From an uncultured Planctomycetia bacterium (GTDB lineage: Bacteria; Omnitrophota; Gorgyraeia; 2-02-FULL-51-18; CAYJSE01), in contig CAYJSE010000002.1 in the NCBI GenBank assembly GCA_964372765.1, positions 15,125 to 79,124 of the forward strand: a stretch of 64,000 nt of DNA, read 5' to 3'. The notes under the pieces were generated by a model. The model was not told where the DNA came from. It saw nothing but the letters and a program-made list of their open reading frames with translations, and made no database searches. Shown piece by piece: positions 1,680-59,204 of this stretch (its first letter is position 1; each line of letters begins with the position of its first letter). The position numbers and the translations under genes were made by a program.

Positions 1680-1731
1680 GAATCATTGAATTTACTAAAA
1701 ATTGCTGAGTTTGTCAAATGTCTTGGATTAT

Positions 1732-1906
1732 GACGAACGGGTCCTGCCGCTCGGCAGCCCCAAAAATTCTTGCGTAACTGCGGTTCGCTGCGAATTTTCG
1801 GGGCGCCCCGCCTCGCGTCACCCGTTCGTCATAATCCTCGACTGCACAAACGCCTTCCGAAAGACAATACTCGCCCCGCCGCAGAACCTCGAGTCAAAAT
1901 CAATGG
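1732..1906. repeat. intergenic repeat element copy A (MITE-like; 11-bp terminal inverted repeats GACGAACGGGT/ACCCGTTCGTC, internal GGGGCGCCCC palindrome and CTGCCGCTCGGCAG hairpin, 3' tail ending CGAGTCAAAATCAATGG)
   Basis: A ~75-nt core (CGGGTCCTGCCGCTCGGCAGCCCCAAAAATTCTTGCGTAACTGCGGTTCGCTGC.AATTTTCGGGGCGCCC) recurs almost identically at 7903-7976. The tail 17-mer recurs at 8150-8166. Confidence 0.8.
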
Positions 1907-1907
1907 A

Positions 1908-1936
1908 TTGTAGGATGTCTTACCGGATAGTACAAT
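1908..1936 (+). promoter_or_regulatory. sigma70-like promoter TTGTAG-17-TACAAT abutting the repeat; predicted TSS at or within a few nt of the ATG of the downstream gene (possible leaderless mRNA)
   Basis: The -10 hexamer ends 6 nt before the ATG at 1943. There is no Shine-Dalgarno sequence in between. Confidence 0.35.
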
Positions 1937-1942
1937 ACCATC

Positions 1943-2359
1943 ATGAATCATTGGTATCGGTATTGGGTGTGGGTTTTGGTTGTGTCCTGGTTGGGTGTGG
2001 GCATCGCTTTTGCGGGGGACCCAGCTGATGAGTTGGAGGAGCCACTCGAGTTTAACTACAAGACGGTCACGACGGAACAGGGGCTTGTGTTTCGCGTGCC
2101 GCCGGACATGCCGATCGAGATGAAAAATGGCATGCAGACACCCGTTCCCTATGACGAGTACCTCGCCGCCAAAGTTTCCCGCATGGAGAAGCGTCTGATC
2201 AGCATCGACGAGCGTCTGGCGAAGATAGACGCCAGTCTCGCCAAACTCACCGAGCAAAAAAAGACCGACGAAGCGACCACAGCCTCTGCGTCCGAGGCTC
2301 CACCGGAAGTTCCCAAGCGACGTGTGACCGAGGGCGGACTACTCATTTCGGAGCAGTAA
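1943..2359 (+). CDS. hypothetical secreted/membrane-anchored coiled-coil protein
   Basis: Has a Trp-rich hydrophobic N-terminus (WYRYWVWVLVVSWLGVGIAFA) and a coiled-coil C-terminus. I recognise no family for it. Confidence 0.5.
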   Translation: MNHWYRYWVWVLVVSWLGVGIAFAGDPADELEEPLEFNYKTVTTEQGLVFRVPPDMPIEMKNGMQTPVPYDEYLAAKVSRMEKRLISIDERLAKIDASLAKLTEQKKTDEATTASASEAPPEVPKRRVTEGGLLISEQ

Positions 2360-2652
2360 ATTTATATGAAAGACACTCCAGCTTACATTCAAGAAAAAGT
2401 GTGCGAAATGTTCAGCCGTAAATCGGGCGAGGAGCGTCTTAAAATGGGCTGCTCGATGCACGATTCTTCAAAGAAACTGACGGCCGATTCTCTTGTGAGG
2501 GCTCATGGCGATTCGGCATAAGACCGCCAATGAGTTGGCCGATGAAGAAAAATAAAATTGTATTATTTGCCCTGATGGCTTTGTCGCTCGGCGACGGAGT
2601 TTTGTTTGCCGAGGATAGTGGTAATTTCCAGTCCAGTGAATAATGATAAATG

Positions 2653-2682
2653 TTAGACATTATGTATAACATATGGTATACT
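2653..2682 (+). promoter_or_regulatory. vapBC promoter (TTAGAC ... TATACT) overlapped by operator-like inverted repeats ATGTTA-N11-TAACAT and ACATTATGT
   Basis: A near-consensus -10 TATACT sits 24 nt upstream of the vapB ATG and is preceded by the SD AAGGGGGA. The palindromes are typical of TA autoregulation. Confidence 0.5.
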
Positions 2683-2705
2683 CCTGACAAGGGGGATTGA
2701 ATCCG

Positions 2706-2936
2706 ATGACACAGGTGACTATTCGGCAGCTGACGCATGGTTTCTCAGGTTATCTCAAGGCGGTCAAAAAAGGGGAGAGGATTGTGATTCTTGACCGGCG
2801 AACTCCGGTTGCTGATCTGATTCCGCATAACGAGAATCTTGCTCAGCCTGGCTGGAAACGCCCCATCACCAGAATTAAAGTCAAAGGTTTGAGCATGGCA
2901 GAAACGGTTTCAAAGATGCGAGATGAAGAAAGGTGA
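2706..2936 (+). CDS. vapB: type II antitoxin, Phd/YefM-like (VapB)
   Basis: Small protein whose N-terminus (TQVTIRQLTHGFSGYLKAVKKGERIVILDRRTPVADLIP) matches the Phd/YefM fold pattern. It overlaps the downstream PIN gene by GTGA. The ORF-track start at 2697 is TTG; the ATG at 2706 has a proper RBS. Confidence 0.6.
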   Translation: MTQVTIRQLTHGFSGYLKAVKKGERIVILDRRTPVADLIPHNENLAQPGWKRPITRIKVKGLSMAETVSKMRDEER

Positions 2937-3346
2937 GAGTTTTTATTGATACGTCCTCACTTTTCAAAAAATACATGGATGAGTCCGGCAGTAGTGATTT
3001 TGAGGAGTTGCTGGCCAAGGCATCCGAGATAGCGGTTTCGCCGATTACCTGGATGGAAGTCAATGCCGCCTTGGCGCGTTGTGTCCGAGGTCGTTTGTTG
3101 TCGGCCGAGCAGGCCGGTCAGCTGCGCGTGGAAGCGAAGAGAGATTTCACTTATTTTTTGAAGGTTATATGGAATGAGCACCTCGAAGATAAAACTGTGG
3201 AAATGATCCAAAAGTGTGAGTTGAAAACATTCGATGCGATGCAGTTGGCCTCCGGGATTTTGTCCGAAGCGGAACTTTTTGTAACGTCCGATAAAAAGCT
3301 GTATCAAGAAGCTAAAAAAATGGTTCACCATATTCGTTTTGTTTAA
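2933..3346 (+). CDS. vapC: PIN-domain ribonuclease toxin VapC
   Basis: MRVFIDTSSL (first acidic residue), TWMEVNAAL and FDAMQLA are classic VapC/PIN motifs. It starts at a GTG start 4 nt before the vapB stop. Confidence 0.8.
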   Translation: MRVFIDTSSLFKKYMDESGSSDFEELLAKASEIAVSPITWMEVNAALARCVRGRLLSAEQAGQLRVEAKRDFTYFLKVIWNEHLEDKTVEMIQKCELKTFDAMQLASGILSEAELFVTSDKKLYQEAKKMVHHIRFV

Positions 3347-3565
3347 CCAAACGTAGAATTTATATGAAAAAATTGTTTCTCCAAACATTCGGCTGGCCGT
3401 TGTTCTCCCGGCAGATTCGTCACAACAAGCGTGACGAATCAAAGCGCCGGGACAAGCGAGACTGCGATACTTCAAGTAGCGCTGGCGGGCGGGAGAGAAG
3501 GTTTGATTCTCAAGAGTCACTAATCTTAGGTAATTCTTAACAAAAATATGTTATACTTCTGAAAT

Positions 3566-4267
3566 ATGAGTCCACAAGCAGCGCAAAACGAAATCTATAA
3601 GAACTCTCCTCTAATCGAAGCTGTTTACGAGGTTCGATTTAGTTCTCTTTTATCCATTGAATCCAATCGTGACAAGTTTCACGACAAGATCAAAGATTCG
3701 TTTCCTGATGTAATCATCGGTAAATCGAATCCTGATCCGTATAGCTTTGAAAAACGCGATAAAAGTTGGTCGATTTTACTCTCCCCGACACTTATTGCGG
3801 TTTCTTGTAAAAAATACGAAGGTTTTCAGGCCTACAAAAAAGAATGTCTTAGGCTGCTGTCTATTTTTGGCGAGCTATTCAAAATCGAGAGAATGACAAG
3901 ATCGGGGTTGAGATACGTCAACATTATTCCTTTTACGAGAGAGGCGGGGGTGATTCCGCTCAAAGCTTTCTTGAATGTTGATATAAGCTTACCCAAATCT
4001 ATACCGTCAACATTCAAAACGGCGTCATTTATTTTTGTTTCTCAGTTGGAAAAGGGCAGCATTACTACACGAGTTGAGCCAGTGATGTCACCAGATCAAA
4101 GCCAAGAAGCTCTTATCCTTGATTTTGACTACGCGAAGGATGCCGATTTAAGCTATAAGAATCTTGACGGGTATTTGGAAGAAAGTCATGGGCACACAAA
4201 GGCACTTTTTGAAGGACTTGTTACGGATAGCTATCGAAAAATAATGCGTGGCGAGGTGGTTGCATGA
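3566..4267 (+). CDS. uncharacterised protein resembling the TIGR04255 family of unknown function (N-terminal Y.NSPLIEAVYEVRF and central RSGLRYVN motifs); first gene of a 3-gene coupled module in the low-GC island
   Basis: Family resemblance is from memory of the TIGR04255 signature, not a search. It is strongly AT-rich relative to flanks. It overlaps the next gene by ATGA. Confidence 0.4.
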   Translation: MSPQAAQNEIYKNSPLIEAVYEVRFSSLLSIESNRDKFHDKIKDSFPDVIIGKSNPDPYSFEKRDKSWSILLSPTLIAVSCKKYEGFQAYKKECLRLLSIFGELFKIERMTRSGLRYVNIIPFTREAGVIPLKAFLNVDISLPKSIPSTFKTASFIFVSQLEKGSITTRVEPVMSPDQSQEALILDFDYAKDADLSYKNLDGYLEESHGHTKALFEGLVTDSYRKIMRGEVVA

Positions 4268-4689
4268 GCGGTTTGGCGCTGGAAGAAACCTATAAGTTGG
4301 TCGAAGAAAGAAAAGCTTATTTTCCCAATAACTATAAGGGAGTGGCGCTTGCCATAGGAACTGCCTCTCAAATCAACCAACCCTCGTCATATTTATATTC
4401 GGGGCGGTTTAGCACTGCTCCGTTGATGGAGTTCCAGGCGGAACAGAGGACTTATGTAACCTCAAAGCCTATTCTTGTCAAAGTTTACAGGGAAGATGAC
4501 ATTTTTATTGCTGAGAACGAGAGCCTTGTTTTAAGCGGATCAGGAGCATCGCGTGAGGAAGCCGTTCTGGATTTCGTGAAGCACGTAGATTATTTTTATA
4601 ATTTTTATAAGCGTCAGAATGACAACAATTTGATGGGCGACGCTCTTAGATTAAAAAAGATTTACGCTAATCTTCTTGTTGAGACTTAA
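4264..4689 (+). CDS. HicB-fold (UPF0150/RNase-H-like) protein without obvious DNA-binding domain; putative antitoxin/partner
   Basis: The segment PILVKVYREDDIFIAENESLVLSGSGASREEAVLDFVKHV matches the HicB N-domain pattern (beta-strand, DDG-Y-A, then GeT-EEAL). It is coupled to the next gene by TAATG. Confidence 0.4.
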   Translation: MSGLALEETYKLVEERKAYFPNNYKGVALAIGTASQINQPSSYLYSGRFSTAPLMEFQAEQRTYVTSKPILVKVYREDDIFIAENESLVLSGSGASREEAVLDFVKHVDYFYNFYKRQNDNNLMGDALRLKKIYANLLVET

Positions 4690-4970
4690 TGCAGATCGAA
4701 AAGCGAGATGTTGAATCATCTCTTCCCAAAAAGGGCTTTGAACGGGACGCAAGTAGAGATCATATTTACTTCAATCATCGCTATCAAGGAAAGTACACAG
4801 GCATTTCTACGTATGTATCTCATGGAGCCAAATCCATTGGAGACCCGCTGATTCAGCAGATGAAAAAGCAACTTCACCTTAATAATTCCCACCAAGTTGT
4901 AGACCTGGTTAATTGTCCGATTTCGAGCGAAGAGTATATTCAGATATTGAAGACTAAGGGGCAACTGTAA
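4689..4970 (+). CDS. HicA-like mRNA-interferase toxin homologue with ~28-aa C-terminal extension
   Basis: LPKKGFERDASRDHIYF ... ISTYVSHGAKSIGDPLIQQMKKQLHL follows the HicA pattern GF..(G)SH..(F/Y) ... (V)..H. .k.I..m..ql.L. The HicA pattern is recalled from memory. Confidence 0.45.
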   Translation: MQIEKRDVESSLPKKGFERDASRDHIYFNHRYQGKYTGISTYVSHGAKSIGDPLIQQMKKQLHLNNSHQVVDLVNCPISSEEYIQILKTKGQL

Positions 4971-5038
4971 AATAACCACTCGGTTCTGATTACCCCAGAA
5001 GGCGCAGTTCTCTTAAACACCAAACAGGACAAGGATTT

Positions 5039-6355
5039 ATGCGAAAGTTTTACATTTGCACCTTCGGCTGCCAAATGAATGAGCGGGATTCGGAGGCCGT
5101 GACGGGTCTCTTGCTGGATCGTGGGTACGAGTCGACCCAGGACCCGGAGACCGCGGACTTGCTTCTTTATAATACCTGCAGTGTGCGCGATCACGCGGAG
5201 CAAAAAGTGTTTGGCCGCATGGGAACGTTTGCGAAGCTAAAGGCGCGCAACCCAAAGCTCGTGATCGGGATTTTGGGCTGCATGGCGCAGGAGCACGGAG
5301 ATAATTTTTTTAAAAAAAACCCGGAGATTGATATCGTTTGCGGCACGGGGAATTTAAGCCAGATCGCGGATTTGGTGGAGGAAATTGAATACCGTCGCGC
5401 GCCGGTGGTGGCGATTGATAAATTGGACGACGCGTACGGTCTCGACGGGATTCACTATCGCCGTGACGCGCTGAAGGCGCTGGTGACGATCATGAAGGGC
5501 TGCGACCATCGCTGCACGTACTGTATCGTGCCCTACACGCGCGGCCAGGAGATTTCTAGATCTTCCGAAAGTGTTTTGCGCGAAACCAAAGACTTGGAGC
5601 GGCGTGGATTTAAAGACGTGATGCTTCTCGGGCAAAATGTGAATTCTTACGGCAAGGGGTTGGTGGAGGGGGTTGATTTTTCCGATCTTTTGGACAAAAT
5701 TCAAAACACCGCGCCGGCCATCCCGCGCTTACGGTTTATCACAAGCCACCCCAAGGATGCGCATACGAAACTTTTCCACACGATGCGCGATTTGCCGATG
5801 GTGTGCGAACACCTGCATCTGCCGGTGCAGTCAGGGTCCGACCGGATTTTGAAACGCATGAAGCGCGAGCACACAAGCGAATGGTATCGGGAGCAGGTCG
5901 ACGAGTACAAAGCCGTGGTTCCCGATGGGACGCTCACGACGGACTTTATCGTCGGGTTTCCGGGTGAGACCGAGCAAGATTTTAACGAAACGCTCGCGCT
6001 TGCCGAGCGCATCGAGTTTGACAGCGCGTTTATTTTCAAATATTCGCCTAGGCCGGGCACGCCGGCGTTGAATCTTGAAGACGACGTGCCGGAAACCGAA
6101 AAGGATAGGCGCTTGCAGACACTTCTATCTCTGCAGCGGGCCGTGGGTCTCAAGAAAAACCAGTCTTGGATCGGCAGAGATCTCGAAGTACTTTTTGAGT
6201 CCAAAACCAAAAGAGATGAAAACCGGTATTTCGGCCGCACGCGCGGATTTAAGCGCGTCGTAGTCTCCTCGGCGGAGGATCTGTGTGGAAAATTCCGTCA
6301 TGTGCGGATCACATCCGCGGCGGACGAAACGTTGGTCGGGGAAATTCGTTCTTGA
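5039..6355 (+). CDS. miaB: tRNA-i6A37 methylthiotransferase MiaB (radical SAM, C-terminal TRAM)
   Basis: FYICTFGCQMN, the CxxxCxxC motif (CDHRCTYC) and a TRAM-like C-terminus. Confidence 0.95.
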   Translation: MRKFYICTFGCQMNERDSEAVTGLLLDRGYESTQDPETADLLLYNTCSVRDHAEQKVFGRMGTFAKLKARNPKLVIGILGCMAQEHGDNFFKKNPEIDIVCGTGNLSQIADLVEEIEYRRAPVVAIDKLDDAYGLDGIHYRRDALKALVTIMKGCDHRCTYCIVPYTRGQEISRSSESVLRETKDLERRGFKDVMLLGQNVNSYGKGLVEGVDFSDLLDKIQNTAPAIPRLRFITSHPKDAHTKLFHTMRDLPMVCEHLHLPVQSGSDRILKRMKREHTSEWYREQVDEYKAVVPDGTLTTDFIVGFPGETEQDFNETLALAERIEFDSAFIFKYSPRPGTPALNLEDDVPETEKDRRLQTLLSLQRAVGLKKNQSWIGRDLEVLFESKTKRDENRYFGRTRGFKRVVVSSAEDLCGKFRHVRITSAADETLVGEIRS

Positions 6356-6915
6356 ACCGCGTTCTTTTTTTGATCGTTTGCGTTCTGATTTTGGGTGTGT
6401 CGGTCGCGCATGCCGAAATGAACCGTATCGAGACCAAAAGAGAACGTATGGAGCGCGAGGCGCGCTCCGGATTTTTTTCATCCAATCAAGCGTATGCAAA
6501 AATCCACGAAGATTTTTTGAGGGACGATCATCGGTCCGTTGTTTCCGGGGTGGGTGATTTTTTAAAGCGCGCTCCCAGAGACGCGCGAGCACCTAAGCTG
6601 CAGCGTCTCGCCGAGCTTTCACAATTAAAGTTGAACCCTCCGGCTATTTCGCCGACGCCGACGCCGGCCCTGCGCCAGCGGGCACTCGAAGAGGCGCCGA
6701 TCTTTACCGTGCAGGTGGGAGCGTTTGCGCGTGCGCACAATGCGGAAGCGCTGGCGCGGCGCTTGAAACGACTTGCCTACGACGCGTATGTCGAACCCGA
6801 TGAAGCGGGTGAGCGTCACCGCGTGCGCGTGGGGCATCTGGGTTCCCGCGACGAAGCGCTGGTCCTCGAATCCCGCCTTCGCAAAGAGGGCTACCCTACC
6901 AAGATACATCCATAA
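6352..6915 (+). CDS. SPOR-domain (peptidoglycan-binding) protein with signal peptide
   Basis: A C-terminal SPOR domain (IFTVQVGAFARAHNAEALARRLKRLAYDAYVEP...RHRVRVGHLGSRDEALVLESRLRKEGY). The likely start is the TTG at 6352 (LNRVLFLIVCVLILGVSVAHA signal), overlapping the miaB stop. The ORF-track start at 6283 lies inside miaB. Confidence 0.7.
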   Translation: MNRVLFLIVCVLILGVSVAHAEMNRIETKRERMEREARSGFFSSNQAYAKIHEDFLRDDHRSVVSGVGDFLKRAPRDARAPKLQRLAELSQLKLNPPAISPTPTPALRQRALEEAPIFTVQVGAFARAHNAEALARRLKRLAYDAYVEPDEAGERHRVRVGHLGSRDEALVLESRLRKEGYPTKIHP

Positions 6916-6917
6916 TG

Positions 6918-6954
6918 AATTTTTGGGGCGCCCCGCCCGCTGTCACCCGTCGCC
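6918..6954. repeat. partial copy C of the intergenic repeat (AATTTTTGGGGCGCCCCGCC...GTCACCCGTCGCC right end only)
   Basis: Matches the right-hand 37 nt of copies A and B, including the GGGGCGCCCC palindrome and the right TIR. It creates an in-frame artefactual N-terminal extension of miaA. Confidence 0.65.
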
Positions 6955-6965
6955 ACTCGTTTCCC

Positions 6966-7892
6966 ATGTCCAAGCGCTTTGTCGTGATTGTGGGTCCGAC
7001 AGGATCTGGGAAGACGGCGGTGGCGGTGGAGCTGGCACGGCGCATTCCGGCGGAGATTATCTCCTGCGACTCGATGCAGATTTATCGCGGGATGCCGATC
7101 GCGACTCAAGCGCCTTCTTTAAGAGAGCGAAAAAGTATCCCGTTTCATCTCACGGCTATTCTTCCTCAGGACTCTGAATATAGCGCCGCGCGGTTTCGGG
7201 ACGAGGCCTCGCAATCCATGCGCGAGATTTGGCATCGAAAGAAGGTGCCGCTCGTGGTCGGCGGGACGGGTTTATACTTCAGGGCGCTGTTGGACGGGCT
7301 TTTTGAGAGCCAGAAAGATGCCTCGAAAGATGAAGCGTACCGTAAAAAACTTTTGGCGCTTCACGAAGAAAAGAGTATTCCATTTTTGCATGAAAAGCTG
7401 AAAGCGGTTGATCCGATCGCAGCCGAACGGATTCATCCCAACGACATCCGGCGCATCGTGCGCGCGCTCGAGGTTTACCACAAGACGCGACGACCGATTT
7501 CCGAGCAGCAACCTAAACGAGAGGGCTTGCGCAACAAATTTCCCCACGCGATTTATTTTTTAGAAAGGGATAGGCAGGATTTGTATGAGCGTATTGAAGC
7601 GCGCGTGGATCAGATGTTCCGTAGGGGGTTGCTGCGGGAAGTAAAGGGATTGCTGGAGAAAGATTTAAGCCAGACAGCCGAATGCGCCATCGGCGTGCGC
7701 GAGATTCGCGATTACTTGGAAGGAAAAGTGGACCTCCAGCGGACAAAGGAGCTCTTAAAACAGCACACGCGCAACTACGCCAAACGCCAGATCTCCTGGT
7801 TTCGCCACGAAAAGGGCGTGACCCACATTCCCGTCGCGCCTACCGAAAAACCAGTCGAAATTGCTGAGAGAATCTTAGGTTTATGTCCATAA
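6966..7892 (+). CDS. miaA: tRNA dimethylallyltransferase MiaA
   Basis: P-loop VVIVGPTGSGKT plus ISCDSMQIYRGMPIATQ. The start is moved to the ATG at 6966 (MSKRFVVIVGPTGSGK); the upstream 17 codons are repeat-derived. Confidence 0.9.
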   Translation: MSKRFVVIVGPTGSGKTAVAVELARRIPAEIISCDSMQIYRGMPIATQAPSLRERKSIPFHLTAILPQDSEYSAARFRDEASQSMREIWHRKKVPLVVGGTGLYFRALLDGLFESQKDASKDEAYRKKLLALHEEKSIPFLHEKLKAVDPIAAERIHPNDIRRIVRALEVYHKTRRPISEQQPKREGLRNKFPHAIYFLERDRQDLYERIEARVDQMFRRGLLREVKGLLEKDLSQTAECAIGVREIRDYLEGKVDLQRTKELLKQHTRNYAKRQISWFRHEKGVTHIPVAPTEKPVEIAERILGLCP

Positions 7893-7899
7893 AATCGTG

Positions 7900-8166
7900 G
7901 GCGACGGGTCCTGCCGCTCGGCAGCCCCAAAAATTCTTGCGTAACTGCGGTTCGCTGCAAATTTTCGGGGCGCCCGCTCCGCCACAGAGCGTCGGCGGAT
8001 TCGTCCCAAAGCTCTGTGGACGGACTTCGCCAGAGCTTTGTGGCGAGCTCGCGTCACCCGTCGCCTCCGCCGAAGGCGGATCCGTCCTACGGCGGAGAAG
8101 GACAGTCCCTCGACAAGCTCGGGATGGTGAGCGAAGTCGAACCAGACCCCGAGTCAAAATCAATGG
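7900..8166. repeat. intergenic repeat element copy B (TIRs GGCGACGGGT/ACCCGTCGCC; carries an extra ~67-bp structured insert with CCACAGAGC...GCTCTGTGG inverted repeat)
   Basis: The core 7903-7976 matches copy A. The tail CGAGTCAAAATCAATGG lies at 8150-8166, immediately upstream of hflX. Confidence 0.8.
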
Positions 8167-8181
8167 GCAAGACCTGCGCTC

Positions 8182-9426
8182 ATGAAAGAAAAAGCAATCT
8201 TAGCGACGGTGCAGTTTGATCGGCAGCGCAGTGGGTGGTCGCTGGAGGACAAGGCCGCTGAGCTGTTGAGCCTGTGTGAGTCGGCGGGTCTTTCGGCGCT
8301 TCACAACTTTACTTTTCGTCAGCGTATTCCGACCGCGTCCTTGCTTTTAGGGAAGGGCAAGGTAGAGCTTTTGCAAAAGGCAGTCCGGACCGAGAGAGCG
8401 CAGGTGCTCGTTTTTGATGCGGATCTTTCGCCGAGCCAGCAGAGGAATATCGAGGAAATCGCCGATGTTAAGACCATTGACCGCACTCAGCTTATCCTGG
8501 ACATTTTCGCTCAGCGCGCGAAGTCCAGCGAAGGTAAGCTTCAGGTGGAGTTGGCCCAGCTGCGTTATCTTTTACCGCGATTGTCCGGCCAGGGGATTTA
8601 TCTTTCGCGGCTCGGGGGCGGTATCGGCACGCGCGGACCGGGTGAACAAAAGCTAGAAGTGGACCGTCGCCGCATCCGTGAACGCATCACGAAGCTGTCC
8701 CGCCAACTGCAAGGTCTCCAGCAAAAGCGCCAGTCGGCGCTTGCCAGGAAAAGAGAAATCGAGTTCCCGGTCGTCGCTCTCGTGGGCTACACCAACGCGG
8801 GAAAGTCGAGTCTATTCAACGCACTGACACGCTCGCGCATGGTCGTGAAAGATCAGCTTTTCTCAACACTCGACACCACCACGCGCGGACTGGCGCTGCC
8901 CGATGGGCAGAAGGTGTTGCTCGTCGACACCGTCGGATTTTTAAGCGGGTTACCGCATCACCTGATCGAGTCGTTCAAGGCCACTCTTGAGGAAACGGTG
9001 GAGGCGGATTTGTTGCTGCATGTCATAGACTCGAGCCGCAGCGATTGGCAGGTTTTGGAAAGGGCCGTTCATGAGGTGCTGGCCCAGCTCGGCGCCGATC
9101 CAAAACCGATGATTCGAGTGTTTAATAAAATCGATGTAGGTCGCTCCTACGCCGCCGCCAAAGATGCAGTTTTCGTTTCTGCCCTCACAGGCCAGGGTTT
9201 GGACGCCTTGCTTGGACGTATCGCTGTGGCTTTCTCAGCCCGTCGCCAGAGACGGAAACTCTTTGTCCCCAACACTTCCCTAGGGTTAACCGGCTTCCTA
9301 TATAGGGCCGCCCACGTGGTGACTCGGGAAAACACCCCGGAGGGCGCTTACTTTACCGTGGATATTACCCCTCAAGCGGAGGGTGTCTTCAAGAAGGGGT
9401 TGACAAGGGGTTCCTTGATGTTGTAA
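8182..9426 (+). CDS. hflX: GTPase HflX
   Basis: N-terminal HflX domain, G-domain motifs GYTNAGKSSLFNALT and DTVGF, and NKID. Confidence 0.9.
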   Translation: MKEKAILATVQFDRQRSGWSLEDKAAELLSLCESAGLSALHNFTFRQRIPTASLLLGKGKVELLQKAVRTERAQVLVFDADLSPSQQRNIEEIADVKTIDRTQLILDIFAQRAKSSEGKLQVELAQLRYLLPRLSGQGIYLSRLGGGIGTRGPGEQKLEVDRRRIRERITKLSRQLQGLQQKRQSALARKREIEFPVVALVGYTNAGKSSLFNALTRSRMVVKDQLFSTLDTTTRGLALPDGQKVLLVDTVGFLSGLPHHLIESFKATLEETVEADLLLHVIDSSRSDWQVLERAVHEVLAQLGADPKPMIRVFNKIDVGRSYAAAKDAVFVSALTGQGLDALLGRIAVAFSARRQRRKLFVPNTSLGLTGFLYRAAHVVTRENTPEGAYFTVDITPQAEGVFKKGLTRGSLML

Positions 9427-12719: not shown

Positions 12720-12814
12720 GGCGGCGGGTGATTCACCCTAACACCCCAGATCCCATTCGGGACGCAAGGCGTGTCGGTCAAGAAAGGGCTGACTTCAATC
12801 ATTGGTTAGTATAG

Positions 12815-12830
12815 CCATATTTTTATATGG
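12815..12830 (+). promoter_or_regulatory. operator-like palindrome CCATAT-TTTT-ATATGG upstream of brnTA, followed by a -10 TATACT (12851-12856)
   Basis: A perfect 6+6 inverted repeat lies ~30 nt upstream of the brnT ATG. This is typical of autoregulated type II TA promoters. Confidence 0.4.
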
Positions 12831-12863
12831 TAAAAAAGCCATACATCGTGTATACTTGCATTG

Positions 12864-13148
12864 ATGGTTGACTTTGAGTGGGACGCCAAGAAGGATGCGG
12901 AAAATCAGGCTAAGCATGGCGTCTCGTTTGAGGTGGCGCAATACGCTTTCTCAGACCCTTATCGTGTTATTGCGCACGATTTAGAACACAGCAAAGAAGA
13001 GAGCCGGTTTTACTGTTTCGGGAAGGTGGGGGACGGTATCCTAACAATCCGTTTTACTTATCGAAATGGTGCGATTCGGATACTCGGGGCCGGATATTGG
13101 AGGAAGGGCAGGAGGGCTTATGAAGCACAAAATAAAATACACGGATGA
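12864..13148 (+). CDS. brnT: BrnT-family ribonuclease toxin (DUF497)
   Basis: VDFEWDAKKDAENQAKHGVSFEVAQYAFSDPYRV matches the BrnT signature (FEWD..K...N..KHG.SFEEA...F.DP). Confidence 0.75.
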   Translation: MVDFEWDAKKDAENQAKHGVSFEVAQYAFSDPYRVIAHDLEHSKEESRFYCFGKVGDGILTIRFTYRNGAIRILGAGYWRKGRRAYEAQNKIHG

Positions 13149-13353
13149 ACCGATGGGGAAGCTAAAGGTGATTAAGGATTTTTTGCCTCCGCCGGAGGAA
13201 CTCGTTTTTAAAGAAGAGCCGGTGAAGGTTACGATGGTGTTGAGCAAGTCCAGCGTTCAGTTCTTCAAAAAGACAGCGCGCAAATATCATGCGCCATACC
13301 AGAAAATTATCCGATCACTACTCGACACCTACGCGGCTCATTATGCCGTGTAG
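13120..13353 (+). CDS. brnA: BrnA-family antitoxin (RHH-type)
   Basis: The C-terminal KVTMVLSKSSVQFFKKTARKYHAPYQKIIRSLLDTY matches the BrnA pattern. A strong SD GGAGGAAGGG precedes the ATG at 13120. The gene overlaps the brnT 3' end. Confidence 0.65.
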   Translation: MKHKIKYTDEPMGKLKVIKDFLPPPEELVFKEEPVKVTMVLSKSSVQFFKKTARKYHAPYQKIIRSLLDTYAAHYAV

Positions 13354-27985: not shown

Positions 27986-28708
27986 ATGAACGATATTAAA
28001 GGCGTGATCTTGGCGGGGGGCTTGGGCAAGCGGCTTCACCCCCTAACGAAGATAACCAATAAGCATCTTTTGCCGATTTACGACAAGCCGATGATCTACT
28101 ATCCGTTGTCGTATCTGGCCGAGGCGGGCATCAAGGATATACTGATCGTGACGGGCGGCAACCACGCGGGTGAATTTTTACGGCTTTTGGGGGACGGTAA
28201 GGAATTTGGGCTCACGCATATCAACTACACCTATCAGGAAGGTGAAGGCGGGATCGCCGAGGCGCTGGGGCTAGCCCGGCATTTTGCGGCGCACAAAAAA
28301 ATCGTGGTGGTGCTGGGCGACAATATTTTAGAGCGGGGCATTCAAAAATACGTGGAACATTTTCGCCGCCAAAAGAGCGGCGCGCGTGTTTTACTTAAAA
28401 AAGTCGAGGACCCGGAGCGCTTTGGAGTGGCGGAGCTGAAAGGCAAAAAGATCGTTTCGATCGAAGAGAAGCCCAAGCGGCCCAAGTCGGACCTGGCCGT
28501 GACGGGCGTTTACATGTATGACGAGCGGGTTTTTGAGATTGTGAAAACGCTCAAACCCTCCCGGCGCGGCGAGCTTGAAATCACCGACGTCAACAACGCT
28601 TACATCGAGCGCGGCGAGCTGGAGTATGACGTGCTGGACGGCTGGTGGACGGATAGCGGCACGTTTGATTCGCTGCTGCGCGCTAATAACCTGATCGCCA
28701 AAAAATGA
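27986..28708 (+). CDS. rmlA: glucose-1-phosphate thymidylyltransferase-like sugar nucleotidyltransferase (short form)
   Basis: GVILAGGLGKRLHPLT and a KPMIYYPL motif. It lies upstream of rmlB/rmlD. Confidence 0.7.
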   Translation: MNDIKGVILAGGLGKRLHPLTKITNKHLLPIYDKPMIYYPLSYLAEAGIKDILIVTGGNHAGEFLRLLGDGKEFGLTHINYTYQEGEGGIAEALGLARHFAAHKKIVVVLGDNILERGIQKYVEHFRRQKSGARVLLKKVEDPERFGVAELKGKKIVSIEEKPKRPKSDLAVTGVYMYDERVFEIVKTLKPSRRGELEITDVNNAYIERGELEYDVLDGWWTDSGTFDSLLRANNLIAKK

Positions 28709-29715
28709 AAGTTCTTATCACAGGGGGAGCCGGCTTCATCGGTTCTTACCTCGTCAAATACTGGCTTAAAATCGATCCCGGCGTGCGGATCGTCAATCTC
28801 GATAAGCTGACCTATTCGGGAGATTTGGGGCGGCTTAAGGAAGTAAAAAATCATCCCCGCTACCAATTCATCCGCGGCGATGTGGCCGACGCGCGCTGTG
28901 TCGAGCGGGCGATGCCCGGATGTGAAGCGGTGGTCCATGTGGCGGCGGAGACGCATGTGGATCGGTCGCTGTTGGACGCGAAAAGCTTTTTTGATTCCAA
29001 TATTCACGGAACCTATGTGCTGCTTGAAGCGGCACGGCGGCACGGGATTCGGAAATTTCTGTTGGTCAGCACCGATGAGGTGTATGGCAGTGTGGAAAAG
29101 GGATTTTCCACGGAAAGCTCACCGCTGGAGCCCACCAGCCCCTACTCGATCTCCAAGACGGCCGGCGACTGGCTAGCGTTTTCTTACGCTCACACCTACG
29201 GACTGCACGCGATGATCACGCGTGGCGGCAACACGTTTGGGCCTTATCAATACCCTGAAAAAGTGATCCCTCTTTTTGTGTCCCAGGCGCTGCAGGACGA
29301 GCCGCTCCCGCTCTACGGCGACGGGCGGCAGGTGCGTAACTGGATTTTTGTGGAGGACCACGTGCAGGCGATCCTGCATGTTTTAAAAAAAGGCAAAAAA
29401 GGAGAGGCCTATAACGTGTCGGGCCGCACCTATTTGAAAAATATCGATTTAACGAAAAAGATTTTGAAGCTGCTCGGCAAACCCGCGTCGCTTGTTCGGC
29501 GCGTTCAGGATAGACCCGGACACGACCGCCGCTACGCGATGAGCTCGGCGAAGCTCCGGGCACTTGGCTGGCGCGAGAGATTTCCGTTTGAAAAGGCACT
29601 GGCCGAAAGCGTGCGTTGGTACTGTGAAAACAAACGCTGGTGGCGGGCCATCAAGGAAAAATCAAAAGATTTCAAAGATTATTACAAAAAATCTTATCAG
29701 CCTAAGATGAGGTAG
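28705..29715 (+). CDS. rmlB: dTDP-glucose 4,6-dehydratase
   Basis: An extended-SDR fold (TGGAGFIGS) and the YSISK catalytic motif, at RmlB length. Confidence 0.8.
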   Translation: MKVLITGGAGFIGSYLVKYWLKIDPGVRIVNLDKLTYSGDLGRLKEVKNHPRYQFIRGDVADARCVERAMPGCEAVVHVAAETHVDRSLLDAKSFFDSNIHGTYVLLEAARRHGIRKFLLVSTDEVYGSVEKGFSTESSPLEPTSPYSISKTAGDWLAFSYAHTYGLHAMITRGGNTFGPYQYPEKVIPLFVSQALQDEPLPLYGDGRQVRNWIFVEDHVQAILHVLKKGKKGEAYNVSGRTYLKNIDLTKKILKLLGKPASLVRRVQDRPGHDRRYAMSSAKLRALGWRERFPFEKALAESVRWYCENKRWWRAIKEKSKDFKDYYKKSYQPKMR

Positions 29716-30632: not shown

Positions 30633-31600
30633 TTACGGGATTAACCGGATTTGTGGGGAGCCATCTCGCGGAGTTTTTACTAAAAATAAAAGGTGTCGAG
30701 GTTCACGGCATCGAGCGCTGGCGGTCCAAAACAGAAAATATCGAAGAGATTAAAAATAAAATCCATCTTTACGAGTGCGATATCCGCGACGCCTCGAGCG
30801 TGCGGCGCATTTTGGAGGAGGCCAAACCGGAGCGCATCTTTCATCTGGCGGCCCAGTCGTTTGTGCCGGCCTCCTGGAATGCGCCGAGCGAGACGCTCAC
30901 GACCAACATCATCGGCGAGCTCAATATTTTCGAGGCGGTGCGTCAGATCGGTATTTGTCCGTTGATACAGATCGCGGGTTCCAGCGAGGAGTATGGCATG
31001 GTGTATCCGAACGAAACGCCCATCGGCGAGGAAAATCCTTTGAGACCGCTCAGCCCCTATGGAGTTTCGAAAGTGGCGCAGGACTTGTTGGCCTACCAGT
31101 ACTATGAAAGCTACAAGCTCGGCGTCGTTCGCACGCGCGCGTTCAACCACACGGGACCGCGTCGCGGCGAAGTATTTGTCACGAGCAATTTTGCGAAGCA
31201 AATCGCGATGATTGAGGCCGAGAAGCAGGAACCCGTGATTTCTGTGGGAAATCTAGAGGCGATTCGAGATTTCACGGATGTGCGCGACATCGTGAAGGCG
31301 TATTGGCTCGCCTTGGAGAAAGGGGACCCGGGGGATGTTTACAATATCGGTTCGGGACGGGGATTCAAGATTAAAGAAGCGCTCAATATTTTATTGAAAA
31401 ATACCCGCGTTTCTATCAAGGTGAAGCAGGATGCTGCGCGTATGCGTCCGAGCGATGTGCCGATTTTGTTGGCGGATTGCGCGAAATTTAAAAAGAAAAC
31501 AGGTTGGGAACCCACCATTCCTTTCGAGACGACGCTTTTGGATCTCTTGAACTACTGGAGAGACAAGATTGCCGCCAAAGCATTTGCAGTCAAAGATTAA
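30620..31600 (+). CDS. GDP-mannose 4,6-dehydratase-like extended SDR (Gmd/Rmd family)
   Basis: ITGLTGFVGSHLAEFLL, YGVSK and RAFNHTGPRRGEVFVT resemble the Gmd region. Substrate is not determinable from sequence. Confidence 0.55.
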   Translation: MRVLITGLTGFVGSHLAEFLLKIKGVEVHGIERWRSKTENIEEIKNKIHLYECDIRDASSVRRILEEAKPERIFHLAAQSFVPASWNAPSETLTTNIIGELNIFEAVRQIGICPLIQIAGSSEEYGMVYPNETPIGEENPLRPLSPYGVSKVAQDLLAYQYYESYKLGVVRTRAFNHTGPRRGEVFVTSNFAKQIAMIEAEKQEPVISVGNLEAIRDFTDVRDIVKAYWLALEKGDPGDVYNIGSGRGFKIKEALNILLKNTRVSIKVKQDAARMRPSDVPILLADCAKFKKKTGWEPTIPFETTLLDLLNYWRDKIAAKAFAVKD

Positions 31601-32867
31601 ATCCAACGCGCTGAAAGTCGGTGTGATCGGCCTGGGGTATGTGGGCCTGCCGCTCGGAGTGTCCTTTGCCGAAAAAGGTCTTTGTGTTACAGGCATTGAT
31701 ATCGACCCGGAGAAGCTCCGAGCGCTTCACGCCGGCCGCTCCTATGTTTTGGATGTGGTTTCCTCTAAGGTTCGGCAGCTTGTCAGGGCGAAGCGCTTAC
31801 GTTTCAGCTCCGATTATCGCGAGGTCCGCGCGCTAGATGCCGTGATCATCTGTGTGCCGACGCCGCTGAGTAAAACCAAGGAACCGGACATCTCGCACAT
31901 CGTGGACGCGGCCCGTGGGATCAAACCCTATCTAAAGAAAGGTCAACTCGTGGTTCTGGAGAGCACCACGTATCCGGGCACTACCGAAGAGGTGATCCAG
32001 CCCATCTTAGAGCAATCAGGTCTCCGGGCGGAGAGGGACTTTTTCCTGGCGTTTTCTCCAGAGCGCGTGGATCCGGGCAACAAGGATTTTGACACGACGT
32101 CCATTCCAAAAATCGTCGGCGGGGTGGGTCCGAAATCCCAAGAAGCGGTTCGCGCGCTGTACGCGACCATCATCCGGGAAGTGGTCGTGGTTTCCTCGCC
32201 GCGCGCCGCCGAAATGGTAAAGCTCCTGGAAAACACGTTTCGCAGTGTCAATATAGGCCTTATCAATGAGATCGCGATTGTTTCGCATCGCCTCGGCATC
32301 GATGTCTGGGAGGTGATCGAGGCGGCCAAGACGAAGCCGTTTGGTTTCATGCCGTTTTATCCGGGACCGGGCTTGGGCGGCCACTGTCTGCCGATCGACC
32401 CTTTATACTTATCGTGGAAGTCGCGCAAGGATCACGGTTTTGAGGCGCGCATGATTGAGCTGGCTTCTGAAATCAACGCCGAAATGCCCGCCTATGTCGT
32501 GGAGCGCGTCGGGCATCTACTCAATGAAAAGGGAAAGCCGCTGAAAGGCTCCTCGATATTGACTTTGGGCGTGGCTTATAAAAAGGACGTGAATGATATC
32601 CGGGAGTCGCCGGCGCTGGAAGTGATGGATGAGCTAAAAAAAGAGGGAGCCAAGGTGACGTATTCGGATCCGTTTGTGCCGGTGTTGGGGCGTGTGAAAT
32701 CCAAAAAATTAACGCCTGTCTTTTTAAAAAAACAGGACTGCGTGGTCATTTTGACGAACCATTCTAGTTTTCCTTACGCGATGGTGGCTCAATACGCGCC
32801 GCTCGTTTTTGACGCGCGTCACGCGATGAAAGCGTTCAAAAAGGACAGGAAGATTCACTTTTTATGA
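31569..32867 (+). CDS. nucleotide-sugar dehydrogenase (UDP-ManNAc/UDP-GlcNAc/UDP-Glc 6-dehydrogenase family)
   Basis: VGVIGLGYVGLPL and the catalytic GLGGHCLPID. The true start is probably a TTG/GTG just after the upstream stop (around 31587-31602), not the overlapping ORF-track start. Confidence 0.8.
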   Translation: MPPKHLQSKIKSNALKVGVIGLGYVGLPLGVSFAEKGLCVTGIDIDPEKLRALHAGRSYVLDVVSSKVRQLVRAKRLRFSSDYREVRALDAVIICVPTPLSKTKEPDISHIVDAARGIKPYLKKGQLVVLESTTYPGTTEEVIQPILEQSGLRAERDFFLAFSPERVDPGNKDFDTTSIPKIVGGVGPKSQEAVRALYATIIREVVVVSSPRAAEMVKLLENTFRSVNIGLINEIAIVSHRLGIDVWEVIEAAKTKPFGFMPFYPGPGLGGHCLPIDPLYLSWKSRKDHGFEARMIELASEINAEMPAYVVERVGHLLNEKGKPLKGSSILTLGVAYKKDVNDIRESPALEVMDELKKEGAKVTYSDPFVPVLGRVKSKKLTPVFLKKQDCVVILTNHSSFPYAMVAQYAPLVFDARHAMKAFKKDRKIHFL

Positions 32868-33808
32868 AAAAGACGTGGGTGGTGACCGGCGGGGCGGGTT
32901 TTATCGGCTCGCATCTGGGCGAGCGTCTCTTGAGCCGCGGACACTGCGTGATGGGCGTGGACAATCTGATCACCGGTTCTTTGCGCAACGTGGAAATTTT
33001 TAGAAACAATCCCCGGTTTCATTTTTTGCGCCAGGATGTTTCCAAGAAACTGAAAGTTTCCGGTCGCGTGCACGGCGTGCTGCATTTTGCGTCGCCGGCC
33101 AGTCCTCCGGACTATCTCAAGTTTCCGCTTGAGACGCTCAAAGTGGGGTCGTTTGGAACCTTTCACGCGCTTGAGCTGGCGCGCACAAAACGCGCGCTCT
33201 TTATGCTGGCCTCCACGAGCGAGGTGTACGGAGATCCGGAAGTCAACCCACAGTCCGAGCAATACTGGGGCCATGTGAATCCGATAGGGCCGCGGTCGGT
33301 GTATGACGAGGCGAAACGTTTTTCGGAAAGTCTCACGATGGCCTACCGGCGTTCTTATCGGCTCAATACGAAAATTATCCGAATCTTCAATACCTACGGT
33401 CCGCGCATGCGCCCGCAGGACGGCCGCGTGATCCCCAATTTTTTGAGCCAGGCATTGCGAAAGGAACCGCTGACGCTCTACGGCGATGGTCGTCAGACGC
33501 GCAGTTACTGTTACATCGATGATTTGATGGATGGCATTGAGAAATATTTAAGTGTCGCATACCCCGGGCCGATCAACCTGGGGAATCCCAATGGAGAATC
33601 GGTGCGGGAGCTGGCTCTCCGGATTTTAAACCTGACAGGATCCAAGAGTGCGCTGGTGCGTCGGGCTCTCCCTGTGGATGACCCCAAACAGCGTTGTCCT
33701 GACATCTCCAGGGCTCGAAAAATATTGGGCTGGCGGCCGCGCGTGCCGCTGGATGAGGGATTGCGTCGGACACTCGAGTATTTTAGGAACGAAATCCGGT
33801 GTCGATAG
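32864..33808 (+). CDS. UDP-glucuronate decarboxylase (UDP-xylose synthase)-like SDR
   Basis: VTGGAGFIGSHL and YDEAKR, at a ~314-aa UXS-like length. It is directly coupled to the dehydrogenase. Confidence 0.65.
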   Translation: MKKTWVVTGGAGFIGSHLGERLLSRGHCVMGVDNLITGSLRNVEIFRNNPRFHFLRQDVSKKLKVSGRVHGVLHFASPASPPDYLKFPLETLKVGSFGTFHALELARTKRALFMLASTSEVYGDPEVNPQSEQYWGHVNPIGPRSVYDEAKRFSESLTMAYRRSYRLNTKIIRIFNTYGPRMRPQDGRVIPNFLSQALRKEPLTLYGDGRQTRSYCYIDDLMDGIEKYLSVAYPGPINLGNPNGESVRELALRILNLTGSKSALVRRALPVDDPKQRCPDISRARKILGWRPRVPLDEGLRRTLEYFRNEIRCR

Positions 33809-36292: not shown

Positions 36293-36441
36293 ACGTTCGA
36301 TTTTTTATCGTCGACCAGCTTACCGTCTTGCATGTCTTTAGCGATAGCATAGCCGCCGACGGCCCCGCCCGCCAAAAGCAGCGGCGCGCAACCGGAGACA
36401 AAAATCGACGCGATAAGGGATAATATAAAAACGAGTCGCAT
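36289..36441 (-). CDS. unannotated 50-aa lipoprotein with glycine-zipper segment (MRLVFILSLIASIFVSGC|APLLLAGGAVGGYAIAKDMQDGKLVDDKKSNV)
   Basis: An ATG at 36441 opens a frame with a lipobox (VSGC) and a Gly-zipper (AGGAVGGYA). It falls below the ORF-track cutoff and is in a different frame from the listed 36273..36476 ORF. Confidence 0.35.
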   Translation of the reverse strand: MRLVFILSLIASIFVSGCAPLLLAGGAVGGYAIAKDMQDGKLVDDKKSNV

Positions 36442-36501
36442 GGGATCAATTTACTATTTTTATGCTTTACACACAAGCTCTATTTATACATAATTAAAAA
36501 T

Positions 36502-38204: not shown

Positions 38205-38277
38205 TTTACGACAAAATGTTAATAGAACGTTAGTCGACCGTAGTAAGTTTTCCTAACTTGTTTATCACAAAAAAGTT

Positions 38278-38309
38278 ACAGAGGGACAGTCCCGGGACTG
38301 TCCCTCTGT
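38278..38309. other. perfect 16+16 bp palindrome ACAGAGGGACAGTCCC|GGGACTGTCCCTCTGT (strong hairpin/cruciform; has a T-run only on the minus strand)
   Basis: Read directly from sequence. AAAAAAGTT lies immediately upstream. This reads as a factor-independent terminator on the minus strand, or a weak/bidirectional one for dedA. Confidence 0.6.
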
Positions 38310-38423
38310 GGGGATTGGGGCTATTTTGACCGCGGCTCTGTTTATTTTTAAAGATTGAGATCATTTTAACGCCCAGAGTTTTATAAACAGGAAATGTTGA
38401 CAACTCCCTGAGATTGCGTTAAC

Positions 38424-38450
38424 CTAATAGTTAGATAATCAAACTATTAG
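38424..38450 (+). promoter_or_regulatory. MarR-type operator candidate CTAATAGTT-N9-AACTATTAG overlapping the marR promoter
   Basis: A perfect 9-bp inverted repeat ending 6 nt before the marR ATG. Confidence 0.55.
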
Positions 38451-38456
38451 ACACCG

Positions 38457-46364: not shown

Positions 46365-46416
46365 TTTTGCCCCGCCTTTCCGAAGCGGTTTTCACCGTCT
46401 AGGAAAGGCGGGGTTT
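46365..46416 (+). terminator. rho-independent terminator of glnA (CCCCGCCTTTCC...GGAAAGGCGGGG + TTTTTTAT)
   Basis: A 12-bp GC-rich stem followed by a T-run, read directly. Confidence 0.8.
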
Positions 46417-46441
46417 TTTATCATCAGCGCAATCTCTCAGA

Positions 46442-48232: not shown

Positions 48233-48235
48233 CCC

Positions 48236-58960: not shown

Positions 58961-58962
58961 AA

Positions 58963-59118
58963 TCACTGATTTTTATTTTTAGAATACGGTTTTGTTTTTT
59001 CTTTTTTTTCGTAACACTCGGGGCAGTTGTAGAGCGGGCGGGCCAGTGTGCGATCGTAGCCGGTATTGACGACGACGCGGCGCACTTCTTTCGTTTCTTT
59101 CCCGCAGGTGTCGCAGCG
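58963..59118 (-). CDS. 51-aa zinc-ribbon protein (MRCDTCGKETKEV...LYNCPECYEKKE), convergent with gcv operon
   Basis: CxxC...CxxC with a Lys-rich tail. The ORF-track version (87 aa) starts further upstream; the ATG at 59118 gives the zinc-ribbon core. Confidence 0.4.
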   Translation of the reverse strand, partial: RCDTCGKETKEVRRVVVNTGYDRTLARPLYNCPECYEKKEKTKPYSKNKNQ

Positions 59119-59204
59119 CATGGAAACTATGTTACCATAGCGCTTGACTTTGAAAAATAAGAAACGTAAGATGATCGTGGCGATTTTAGCCAAGGAGAAT
59201 GTGA

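Follow-up and report, generated by a model that had tools for sequence, protein, structure and literature searches.

Rickettsia palindromic elements are known as selfish DNA in protein-coding genes of Rickettsia, and together with the repetitive extragenic palindromic (REP) sequences, the enterobacterial repetitive intergenic consensus (ERIC) sequences and the MITEs (miniature inverted-repeat transposable elements) they provide the described systems with which a newly noticed palindromic repeat can be compared. Here we describe such a repeat, present in three copies (A, B and C) within 6.3 kb of a 64-kb stretch of an Omnitrophota genome (contig CAYJSE010000002.1, positions 15,125 to 79,124). 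This whole stretch is referred to as the window, and coordinates are those of the window unless another locus (L or P number) is named. The repeats are likely to be mobile DNA, palindromic and non-autonomous, of the same type as MITEs or Rickettsia palindromic elements and belonging to an apparently undescribed family. A preliminary description, made from the letters of the sequence, had proposed a non-autonomous mobile repeat with inverted termini, with a structured insertion in one copy and a right-end-only remnant as another, and the present analysis supports that proposal.

Direct reading and a repeat finder both located the three repeats where the preliminary description had placed them. 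A core of about 75 nt with two mismatches had been reported for copies A and B; the shared core is real, but it measures 72 nt (1737-1808 and 7904-7975) and contains a single mismatch, while copy C at 6917-6950 is 85% identical to positions 1792-1825 of copy A. When compared with shuffles of the window, a 32-nt piece of the core has two occurrences versus 0.00 expected, and the 20-mer AATTTTCGGGGCGCCCCGCC has three occurrences at no more than three mismatches versus 0.01 expected. A covariance model, R1, was run over the whole 64-kb window with its filters off, and only copy A (80 bits, E-value 5.5e-18) and copy B (31-33 bits) were significant, with no further copy; copy C, scored as a full-length match, reached only 8.6 bits. 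Two other candidates, a 5′ motif with two mismatches at 31642 and an R1 match with an E-value of 0.9 at 31147-31240, lie inside intact sugar-nucleotide enzyme genes (sugar dehydrogenase and epimerase) and were rejected as chance matches. The element measures 85-166 nt. The window copies are intergenic, copy C most probably so, and the open reading frames (ORFs) that overlap the element have no Pfam match.

The same element occurs in many other genomes. Using an exact 20-mer from the 5′ strand of the core, four related elements were found in JGI metagenome contigs, and the 18-mer CCCCGCCTCGCGTCACCC from the 3′ strand was found at 83 places in contigs of a one-genome-per-species collection, approximately 55 of which are true copies; the other 28 or so are chance matches in GC-rich DNA such as that of Streptomyces. 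A 24-mer from the 5′ strand gave no match in the genome collection because most genomes carry the variant CGGTCCG. The covariance model found 65 matches in the retrieved loci, and by pattern scans the element is present at more than 60 loci in metagenome-assembled genomes (MAGs). Going by record titles, the hosts are mostly Candidatus Saccharibacteria or Saccharimonadales, with further copies in Nomurabacteria, Gottesmanbacteria, Omnitrophota and two Planctomycetia MAGs, and one each in Eisenbacteria and Gammaproteobacteria, although some of these labels may be binning errors. The copies closest to those of the window are in the two Planctomycetia MAGs. Several MAGs are multicopy, and at least nine copies were counted in the loci retrieved from CAIUMO01 (bin-647). 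Scans of viral contigs (IMG/VR), plasmids (PLSDB) and phages (INPHARED) yielded no true copy, and a literature search for the sequence itself, or for MITE or palindromic elements in the candidate phyla radiation (CPR) or Omnitrophota, returned nothing relevant.

Some of these genomes carry larger arrangements around the element. In bin-647, a non-coding composite repeat of about 375 nt (L037:3279-3655 and other loci) has inverted ends of about 33 bp (AAGCCC..TCAC followed by GGGTCCTGCCGCTC) and the full hairpin element at one end only, and many contigs of this MAG stop inside the repeat. In Saccharibacteria, a second conserved module, CCGCTCCCGTCGT and CGTAGGTCGCT separated by a short hairpin, lies immediately 5′ of the element in L009, L013, L019, L077, L088, L100 (1705-1755) and L102. 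A different module, seen in translation and containing SFSEGSGFPPERG, recurs in unrelated proteins (an ABC-F protein in L088 and the LepA-like protein P0143). The repeats appear to be modular mosaics.

In their insertion sites the copies behave like selfish DNA and not like an RNA tied to particular genes. On a crude ORF map, 29 upstream neighbours are on the plus and 18 on the minus strand, the corresponding numbers for downstream neighbours being 13 and 25, and the copies have no orientation bias towards neighbouring genes. Copies are also found in frame within genes, including those for valyl-tRNA synthetase (ValRS), glutamyl-tRNA synthetase (GluRS), a LepA-like GTPase, dihydrouridine synthase (Dus), an RlmD-like methyltransferase, an ABC-F ATPase, an RNase HII fusion, a CobW-like GTPase, prephenate dehydrogenase and membrane glycosyltransferases. 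Since these intragenic copies use both orientations and more than one reading frame while the ORF stays open, the conservation resides at the level of the nucleic acid and not of the peptide. One surface loop of the LepA-like GTPase of Saccharibacteria holds a minus-strand copy in L085, a plus-strand copy in L100 and L102 and none in other homologues, so that a single site has been entered independently. Decayed and truncated copies are common in the family, and minimal ones occur as well.

Two side observations concern Saccharibacterial host loci. Copies at L011:1222-1307 and L062:2928-3009, from genomes whose UvrA proteins are 84% identical, occupy the same intergenic region 5′ of a conserved uvrA promoter with differing tips and arms, which would fit either an old common insertion with copy replacement or a hot spot. 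The lepA (EF4) gene itself is seemingly split in the Saccharibacteria of L100 (1501-3935), L101 and L102 (1501-3058), into an ORF of about 355 residues for the N-terminal GTPase and domain II, a 129-residue ORF with no Pfam match and an ORF with EFG_C and LepA_C domains. The split may be general in the group, because the best 120 protein matches listed for the N-terminal part are about 280-370 residues long.

At the miaA locus, occupied and empty junctions can be compared. In the window, miaA and hflX are separated by a spacer of 289 nt (7893-8181, plus strand) that contains copy B, whereas the two genes are 14 nt apart in L091, the closest relative with DNA at hand, and overlap by 4 nt on the P0003 contig. 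Similarly, the gene upstream of miaA overlaps the miaA start in L091, whereas a 50-nt spacer with copy C is found in the window. The best HflX relatives after the window's own protein are about 60% identical (59-62%) and are named Omnitrophota. The empty junctions in these relatives are suggestive of an insertion polymorphism in the window lineage. As a separate observation on this gene pair, no hfq lies between miaA and hflX in this Omnitrophota lineage (6966-9426) or its relatives, including L091.

The conserved part of the element is an asymmetric core of about 45 nt that is almost unchanged across phyla. Common to all copies are a 5′ strand, C-GGGTCCTGCCGCTCGG(TCCG or CAG)CCCC, and a 3′ strand, GGG(N)GC(TG)CCCCGCCTCGCGTCACCC-G, which together do not make a simple palindrome and form instead an irregular helix (GGGT/ACCC, TGC/GCG, GC/GC, GGT/GCC and so on) with fixed pyrimidine-pyrimidine mismatches. 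This conservation is partly a matter of ascertainment, since exact 18- to 20-mers of core sequence had served to retrieve the copies. The closing helix common to the family is C-GGGT/ACCC-G, and copies A and B have perfect arms of 10-18 bp. Beyond it the outer arms are specific to a lineage or a copy, with a median extension of 2 bp and with 12-19 bp in a few intergenic copies, copy A being one of them. The apical hairpin ranges from absent to about 90 nt, and its sequence depends on lineage while its pairing is kept; minimal forms of 38 nt without it occur in L022, L040, L053 and L067. Extra hairpins have been acquired by some lineages, in the 5′ strand in L021, L065 and L077 and in the 3′ strand in copy B of the window.

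Pairing between the two sides of the element is strongly maintained. On the model-based alignment, which is fitted to the model and so favours the structure, 92% of cells are paired versus 76% in shuffles and 209 cells carry double changes versus 68, a value reached by none of 500 shuffles; sliding the partners out of register lowers pairing to 41-54%. An independent analysis with MAFFT and RNAalifold showed compensatory changes at 11 of 23 pairs, for example G-C, C-G and A-T at one core pair, and cognate apical arms pair better with each other than with non-cognate arms. The variable hairpin shows no preference for one strand in energy (17 versus 19) and little in G-U pairs (35 versus 22).

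Copy A (1725-1837, plus strand) is a complete element of 113 nt, recognised by sequence reading, folding and R1, and lies between the cyclophilin gene and the next gene as one long imperfect hairpin. It consists of a 5′ outer arm GGATTATGACGAAC (1725-1738), the 5′ strand of the family-wide core, C-GGGTCCTGCCGCTCGGCAGCCCC (1738-1761), which hardly varies among 53 full copies of other genomes, an apical hairpin (1762-1799) in the part whose length and sequence differ within the family and which shows covariation, the 3′ strand of the core, GGGGCGCCCCGCCTCGCGTCACCC-G (1800-1824), whose 18-mer was used to fish the family out of public genomes, and a 3′ outer arm GTTCGTCATAATCC (1824-1837), delimited by the repeat finder and by arm-extension analysis and pairing perfectly with the 5′ outer arm. 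Perfect terminal inverted repeats of copies A and B had been noted earlier and are as described, with a longer pairing in copy A, where GGATTATGACGAACGGGT (1725-1742) pairs with ACCCGTTCGTCATAATCC (1820-1837) in a perfect outer stem of 18 bp; beyond GGGT/ACCC there are 14 consecutive Watson-Crick pairs, compared with the family median of two. The RNA folds into a single rod-like hairpin of -68.2 kcal/mol (z -9.1), and the DNA fold has -36.8 kcal/mol (z -6.9). A CTGCCG-CT-CGGCAG hairpin and a perfect GGGGCGCCCC palindrome, which the preliminary description had singled out, are not conserved as such, CGGTCCG and GGGTGCTG being the readings of most copies in the family; on folding, the bases concerned are for the most part paired between one arm and the other.

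Copy B (7900-8065, plus strand), delimited by the repeat finder and R1, has both ends complete and has the same 5′ core and apical hairpin as copy A, and its outer arms (GGCGAC/GTCGCC) differ from those of copy A yet are again perfectly complementary. Its 3′ core is interrupted. The structured insert of about 67 bp reported earlier is indeed present, but it is a nested hairpin of 73 nt (7976-8048, plus strand) that takes the place of CGCC in the 3′ core, a net gain of 69 nt; it has no homologue in the window or the retrieved loci. Copy C (6917-6954, plus strand) is a 5′-truncated remnant, reduced to the 3′ core, the apical hairpin's 3′ arm and the outer arm GTCGCC. That it is a right-end-only copy was correctly noted, whereas its placement inside the annotated 5′ end of miaA probably does not stand. 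In the long ORF, homology to MiaA sets in at residue 19, and the ATG at 6966 is accordingly taken as the true start; copy C then lies in a 50-nt spacer directly after the stop codon of a SPOR-domain gene (6913-6915); it is thus most likely intergenic.

Downstream of copies A and B there is a second shared block. The 17-mer CGAGTCAAAATCAATGG, pointed out earlier, occurs exactly twice in the window (1890-1906 and 8150-8166; 0.26 expected) and extends to a 21-mer with one mismatch between the two sides, ACCTCGAGTCAAAATCAATGG at 1886-1906 and ACCCCGAGTCAAAATCAATGG at 8146-8166, both on the plus strand and found by the repeat finder, the latter ending 15 nt 5′ of the hflX start. Neither the 17-mer nor the 21-mer matches any other retrieved locus, so that the block is private to this genome, and between the hairpin and the 17-mer no convincing structure is seen (z -2.4 and +0.1). 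Because the similarity between the A and B sides stops at the 21-mer, the mobile unit in this genome may be composite, made up of the hairpin, 60-80 nt or so and the 21-mer as its right end, and the composite repeat of bin-647 provides a parallel.

Several observations weigh against the interpretation of these repeats as a mobile DNA element. Transposition itself we infer from the distribution of copies only. Among 50 copies, no target-site duplication of 3-9 bp was detected at boundary offsets of 0-12 nt; direct repeats of 3 nt flank at most 10% of them, those of 8-9 nt flank none, and the flanks are inverted and not direct. No autonomous partner or other mobilising enzyme was found among the window ORFs or in the 8-kb loci around copies. 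On the other hand, a non-autonomous element fits with the Pfam result, no transposase or recombinase family (E-value of 1e-6 or stricter) being matched by the window ORFs of at least 90 residues, a set from which the 107-residue ORF at 7840-8163 (minus strand) was left out, and with the lack of any transposase recurring beside copies in those 8-kb loci, where only ABC-transporter ATPases recurred. In the window, all copies point the same way, sense to the genes downstream of them, and are confined to 6.3 kb, and the relatives with empty miaA junctions are distant (62% identity in HflX for the nearest), so that these junctions are not strain-level evidence. Near-identity of the core across phyla, with arms and tips fully diverged, also exceeds what MITE or REP families usually show, and it may reflect a function beyond selfish spread.

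The preliminary description had taken the compensatory differences in the terminal inverted repeats as a sign that pairing is under selection. Pairing is indeed strongly maintained, but selection need not be what maintains it. The orthologous, decaying copies in the lepA-like gene of L100 and L102 read AGCGAG/CTCGCT and AGTCGAT/ATCGACT, multi-base blocks having changed together on both arms, and concerted block changes of this kind are the product of templated DNA events such as quasi-palindrome strand switching or conversion by a further copy. The pattern is explained equally well or better by gene conversion or by correction within a quasi-palindrome, and templated DNA correction rather than selection could keep the arms complementary. 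Selection on a folded transposition intermediate is possible, and selection for a host RNA function is not needed to account for arm pairing.

If the repeats are mobile DNA, the following history may be proposed. The element would have entered this Omnitrophota genome and inserted at gene boundaries, namely at the junction of the cyclophilin gene with the next gene and both upstream and downstream of miaA; copy A would then have stayed intact, while copy B gained the nested hairpin in its 3′ core and the 5′ half of copy C was lost. An enzyme supplied in trans would recognise the core, probably as a cruciform or as a hairpin of single-stranded DNA; this is suggested by unpaired bases that are no less conserved than the paired ones, by a tip that can be dispensed with and by the lack of a duplication. 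The same folded-strand logic applies to the REP sequences with their REP-associated tyrosine transposases (RAYTs), to the ends of IS200/IS605 elements and to attC sites. Insertion would proceed without target duplication, and complementarity of the arms would be maintained at least partly by templated DNA processes. For the host, a very stable hairpin in the intercistronic mRNA would replace the tight coupling of miaA and hflX, an effect that is probably neutral to mildly disruptive.

A more far-reaching possibility, which we think unlikely but worth stating, is that the core is the folded-strand substrate of a conserved structure-specific enzyme, either a single-stranded-DNA transposase or recombinase or a hijacked host factor, that is common to CPR bacteria and Omnitrophota. 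If true, this would be a new mobilisation system that makes no target duplication, tolerates any tip, colonises essential genes and passes between phyla of ultra-small host-dependent bacteria. Removal of the element, or action on it, at the RNA level would be a still remoter variant of this idea.

A cis-acting structured RNA, be it a leader, a small RNA or an element for intercistronic processing or stability, whose loops bind a protein or ligand and whose stems are under selection for RNA folding, is improbable, although it has a number of observations in its favour. The folds are very stable with strong covariation, unpaired bases are conserved in sequence across phyla, and each of the window copies is sense to the gene that follows it; moreover, the opposite strand would have purine-rich internal loops and folds better in 44 of 53 copies. 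Nevertheless, copies elsewhere stand in either orientation to their neighbours and both ways inside coding sequences, relatives lack the element at the orthologous miaA-hflX junction, half and decayed copies exist, and neither in G-U pairs nor in energy is the variable hairpin asymmetric between strands. The preliminary suggestion of a REP-like regulatory RNA family is not supported, in view of these same features, namely both orientations, intragenic copies in several frames, decay and truncation, the lack of strand asymmetry and the lack of an Rfam match. At the gathering score, Rfam had no match in the window and gave only tRNAs in 16 related loci, and at E-values up to 10 nothing relevant appeared at the element, the overlapping rows being chance-level eukaryotic or unrelated families; ARAGORN reported no tRNA or tmRNA. 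The repeats also lack a U-tract, although the genome has canonical terminators: a site at 46369-46420, after the glutamine synthetase gene, has a 13-bp GC-rich stem followed by UUUUUU, from which we conclude that the organism uses ordinary terminators, unlike the repeat copies, and a terminator scan showed no terminator-like site at copies A or B. Promoter-like sites were limited to the minus strand beside the cyclophilin gene start and to 6946-6919 within copy C (9/12, chance level).

An attC-like substrate, recognised as a folded strand by a site-specific and structure-specific recombinase and so marking the boundaries of mobile gene cassettes, is very doubtful. The conserved basal helix with fixed unpaired bases, the tip of 0 to about 90 nt, the lack of target duplication and 3′ flanks that often start with GTT are in keeping with it. 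However, the RYYYAAC/GTTRRRY consensus, compared by eye, is missing, no integrase is found in the window and copies lie inside genes, while the flanking genes (miaB, miaA, hflX, hrcA-grpE-dnaK) are conserved housekeeping genes in conserved order and not cassettes. An integron attC site proper was likewise rejected, there being no R′′/R′ boxes (the flanks read AC/GT, GC/GC, TC/GA and so on), no integrase and only housekeeping neighbours.

It is hard to credit that the element is an intervening sequence removed from transcripts at the RNA level, which would explain its tolerance in essential genes. Copies are indeed tolerated within ValRS, GluRS and LepA genes, and their flanks often pair and close the structure; yet none of the full intragenic copies breaks the frame, in a screen that detects only copies spanned by an open frame, and old copies drift in frame, the loop in L100 and L102 reading GPASESAP..GAAPLAVTR and GPVSRSAP..GATPSTATR, as fits translation. 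The 38-nt minimal forms are also too small for known self-splicing RNAs and no ribozyme family was matched; an rRNA intervening sequence was rejected, as the loci contain no rRNA. Finally, a local segmental duplication within a 6-kb region, or chance, can scarcely be entertained, for although the three copies lie within 6.3 kb with none in the remaining 58 kb and copies A and B share the private 21-mer, the same core stands at more than 60 unrelated loci in other organisms and the chance expectation is at most 0.01. The preliminary description had envisaged that no further copies or conservation might be found and that the similarity might reflect only a local duplication; the many copies in other genomes speak otherwise, as do the closest relatives, which lack the miaA-hflX spacer, and L091, which also lacks the spacer 5′ of miaA. 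Local duplication as a full explanation is thus already refuted, whereas local gene conversion or short-range hopping among copies A, B and C is possible.

Taken as mobile DNA, the repeats have consequences for how such genomes are read. Selfish DNA insertions would account for two intergenic gaps that are among the largest of this very compact genome, one of them splitting the normally abutting miaA-hflX pair, and a core of about 45 nt stays almost unchanged from Saccharibacteria and other CPR lineages to Omnitrophota and a few further MAGs. Mobile palindromes may be a source of loop insertions in CPR proteins, as in Saccharibacteria, where they lie in frame in core translation genes, and may mark gene flow between ultra-small bacteria. 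They also call for caution in annotation, as they can give rise to spurious N-terminal extensions (of miaA here) and spurious ORFs and coincide with contig ends in bin-647, and covariation within such an element can be mistaken for that of a functional RNA.

Other features of the window may be mentioned briefly. From 3566 to 64000 all predicted genes but one are on the plus strand, with junctions that are very short or overlapping, and gaps of more than 200 nt are seen at 12720-13065, 36293-36501, 38205-38456 and 58961-59204. The gene order is miaB, the SPOR-domain gene, miaA and hflX, followed by hrcA-grpE-dnaK-(small ORF)-dnaJ. The small ORF between dnaK and dnaJ (13066-13353, 95 residues) follows the largest intergenic gap and shows a weak match to the BrnA antitoxin (E-value 6e-4, below the Pfam cut-off). 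Tandem ROK-family paralogues are present at 47000-49462 and paralogous sugar-nucleotide epimerase/dehydratase genes at 28705-29715 and 32864-33808, and these paralogues account for the other long direct repeats of the window (families D2 and D3).

Among known systems, the family is best placed with the small palindromic selfish repeats, its behaviour being closest to that of Rickettsia palindromic elements, then to REPINs and ERICs. Two of its traits are unusual, namely the near-invariance of the core from phylum to phylum, in part a result of the retrieval, and the frequency with which copies lie in frame in essential genes of CPR bacteria. The attC sites resemble it in that a variable terminal structure tops a conserved base containing unpaired bases, and attC function depends on the folded strand. 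With MITEs, including the Tn3-derived TIMEs, it shares small size (less than about 500 bp), the lack of a transposase ORF, terminal inverted repeats, multiple copies and presence or absence between genomes, and in bin-647 the repeat of about 375 nt has inverted ends (about 33 bp) that include the 5′ core; it differs in having no target-site duplication, and no parent insertion sequence was found in the window or the 8-kb loci. A resemblance of the 5′ core to the inverted repeat of Tn3 was rejected, as it concerns non-conserved positions and there is neither an inner TAAG nor a 5-bp duplication.

ERICs, also called intergenic repeat units (IRUs), are imperfect palindromes of about 125 nt in transcribed intergenic regions, whose copies may be enlarged by internal insertions of about 70 nt or truncated, much like copies A, B and C. 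They have another host range and are likened here by description and not by sequence, and we know of no report of ERICs inside coding sequences. REP and REPIN sequences, with their RAYTs (of the Y1 HUH type), and palindromes derived from IS200/IS605 agree with the family in the conserved fold of imperfect hairpins, the lack of target duplication and the many copies per genome. However, REPs are extragenic, whereas this family is also intragenic and so falls outside an extragenic-only definition; it has no conserved 5′ tetranucleotide of the GTAG type, and REP sequences vary by species while this core does not. No match to RAYT/TnpA (Y1_Tnp) was found in the 64-kb window or near copies.

The kinship with Rickettsia palindromic elements is one of behaviour only, drawn from their descriptions and not from sequence. 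They belong to other host phyla, and the present family differs in an almost invariant asymmetric core across phyla and a tip that ranges from absent to about 90 nt. The likeness is otherwise extensive: in both cases a palindromic repeat of about 100 nt, non-coding itself and with no transposase known, is dispersed in the small genomes of host-dependent bacteria and is found both between genes and in frame within housekeeping genes, adding a peptide to the protein at a loop that tolerates it.

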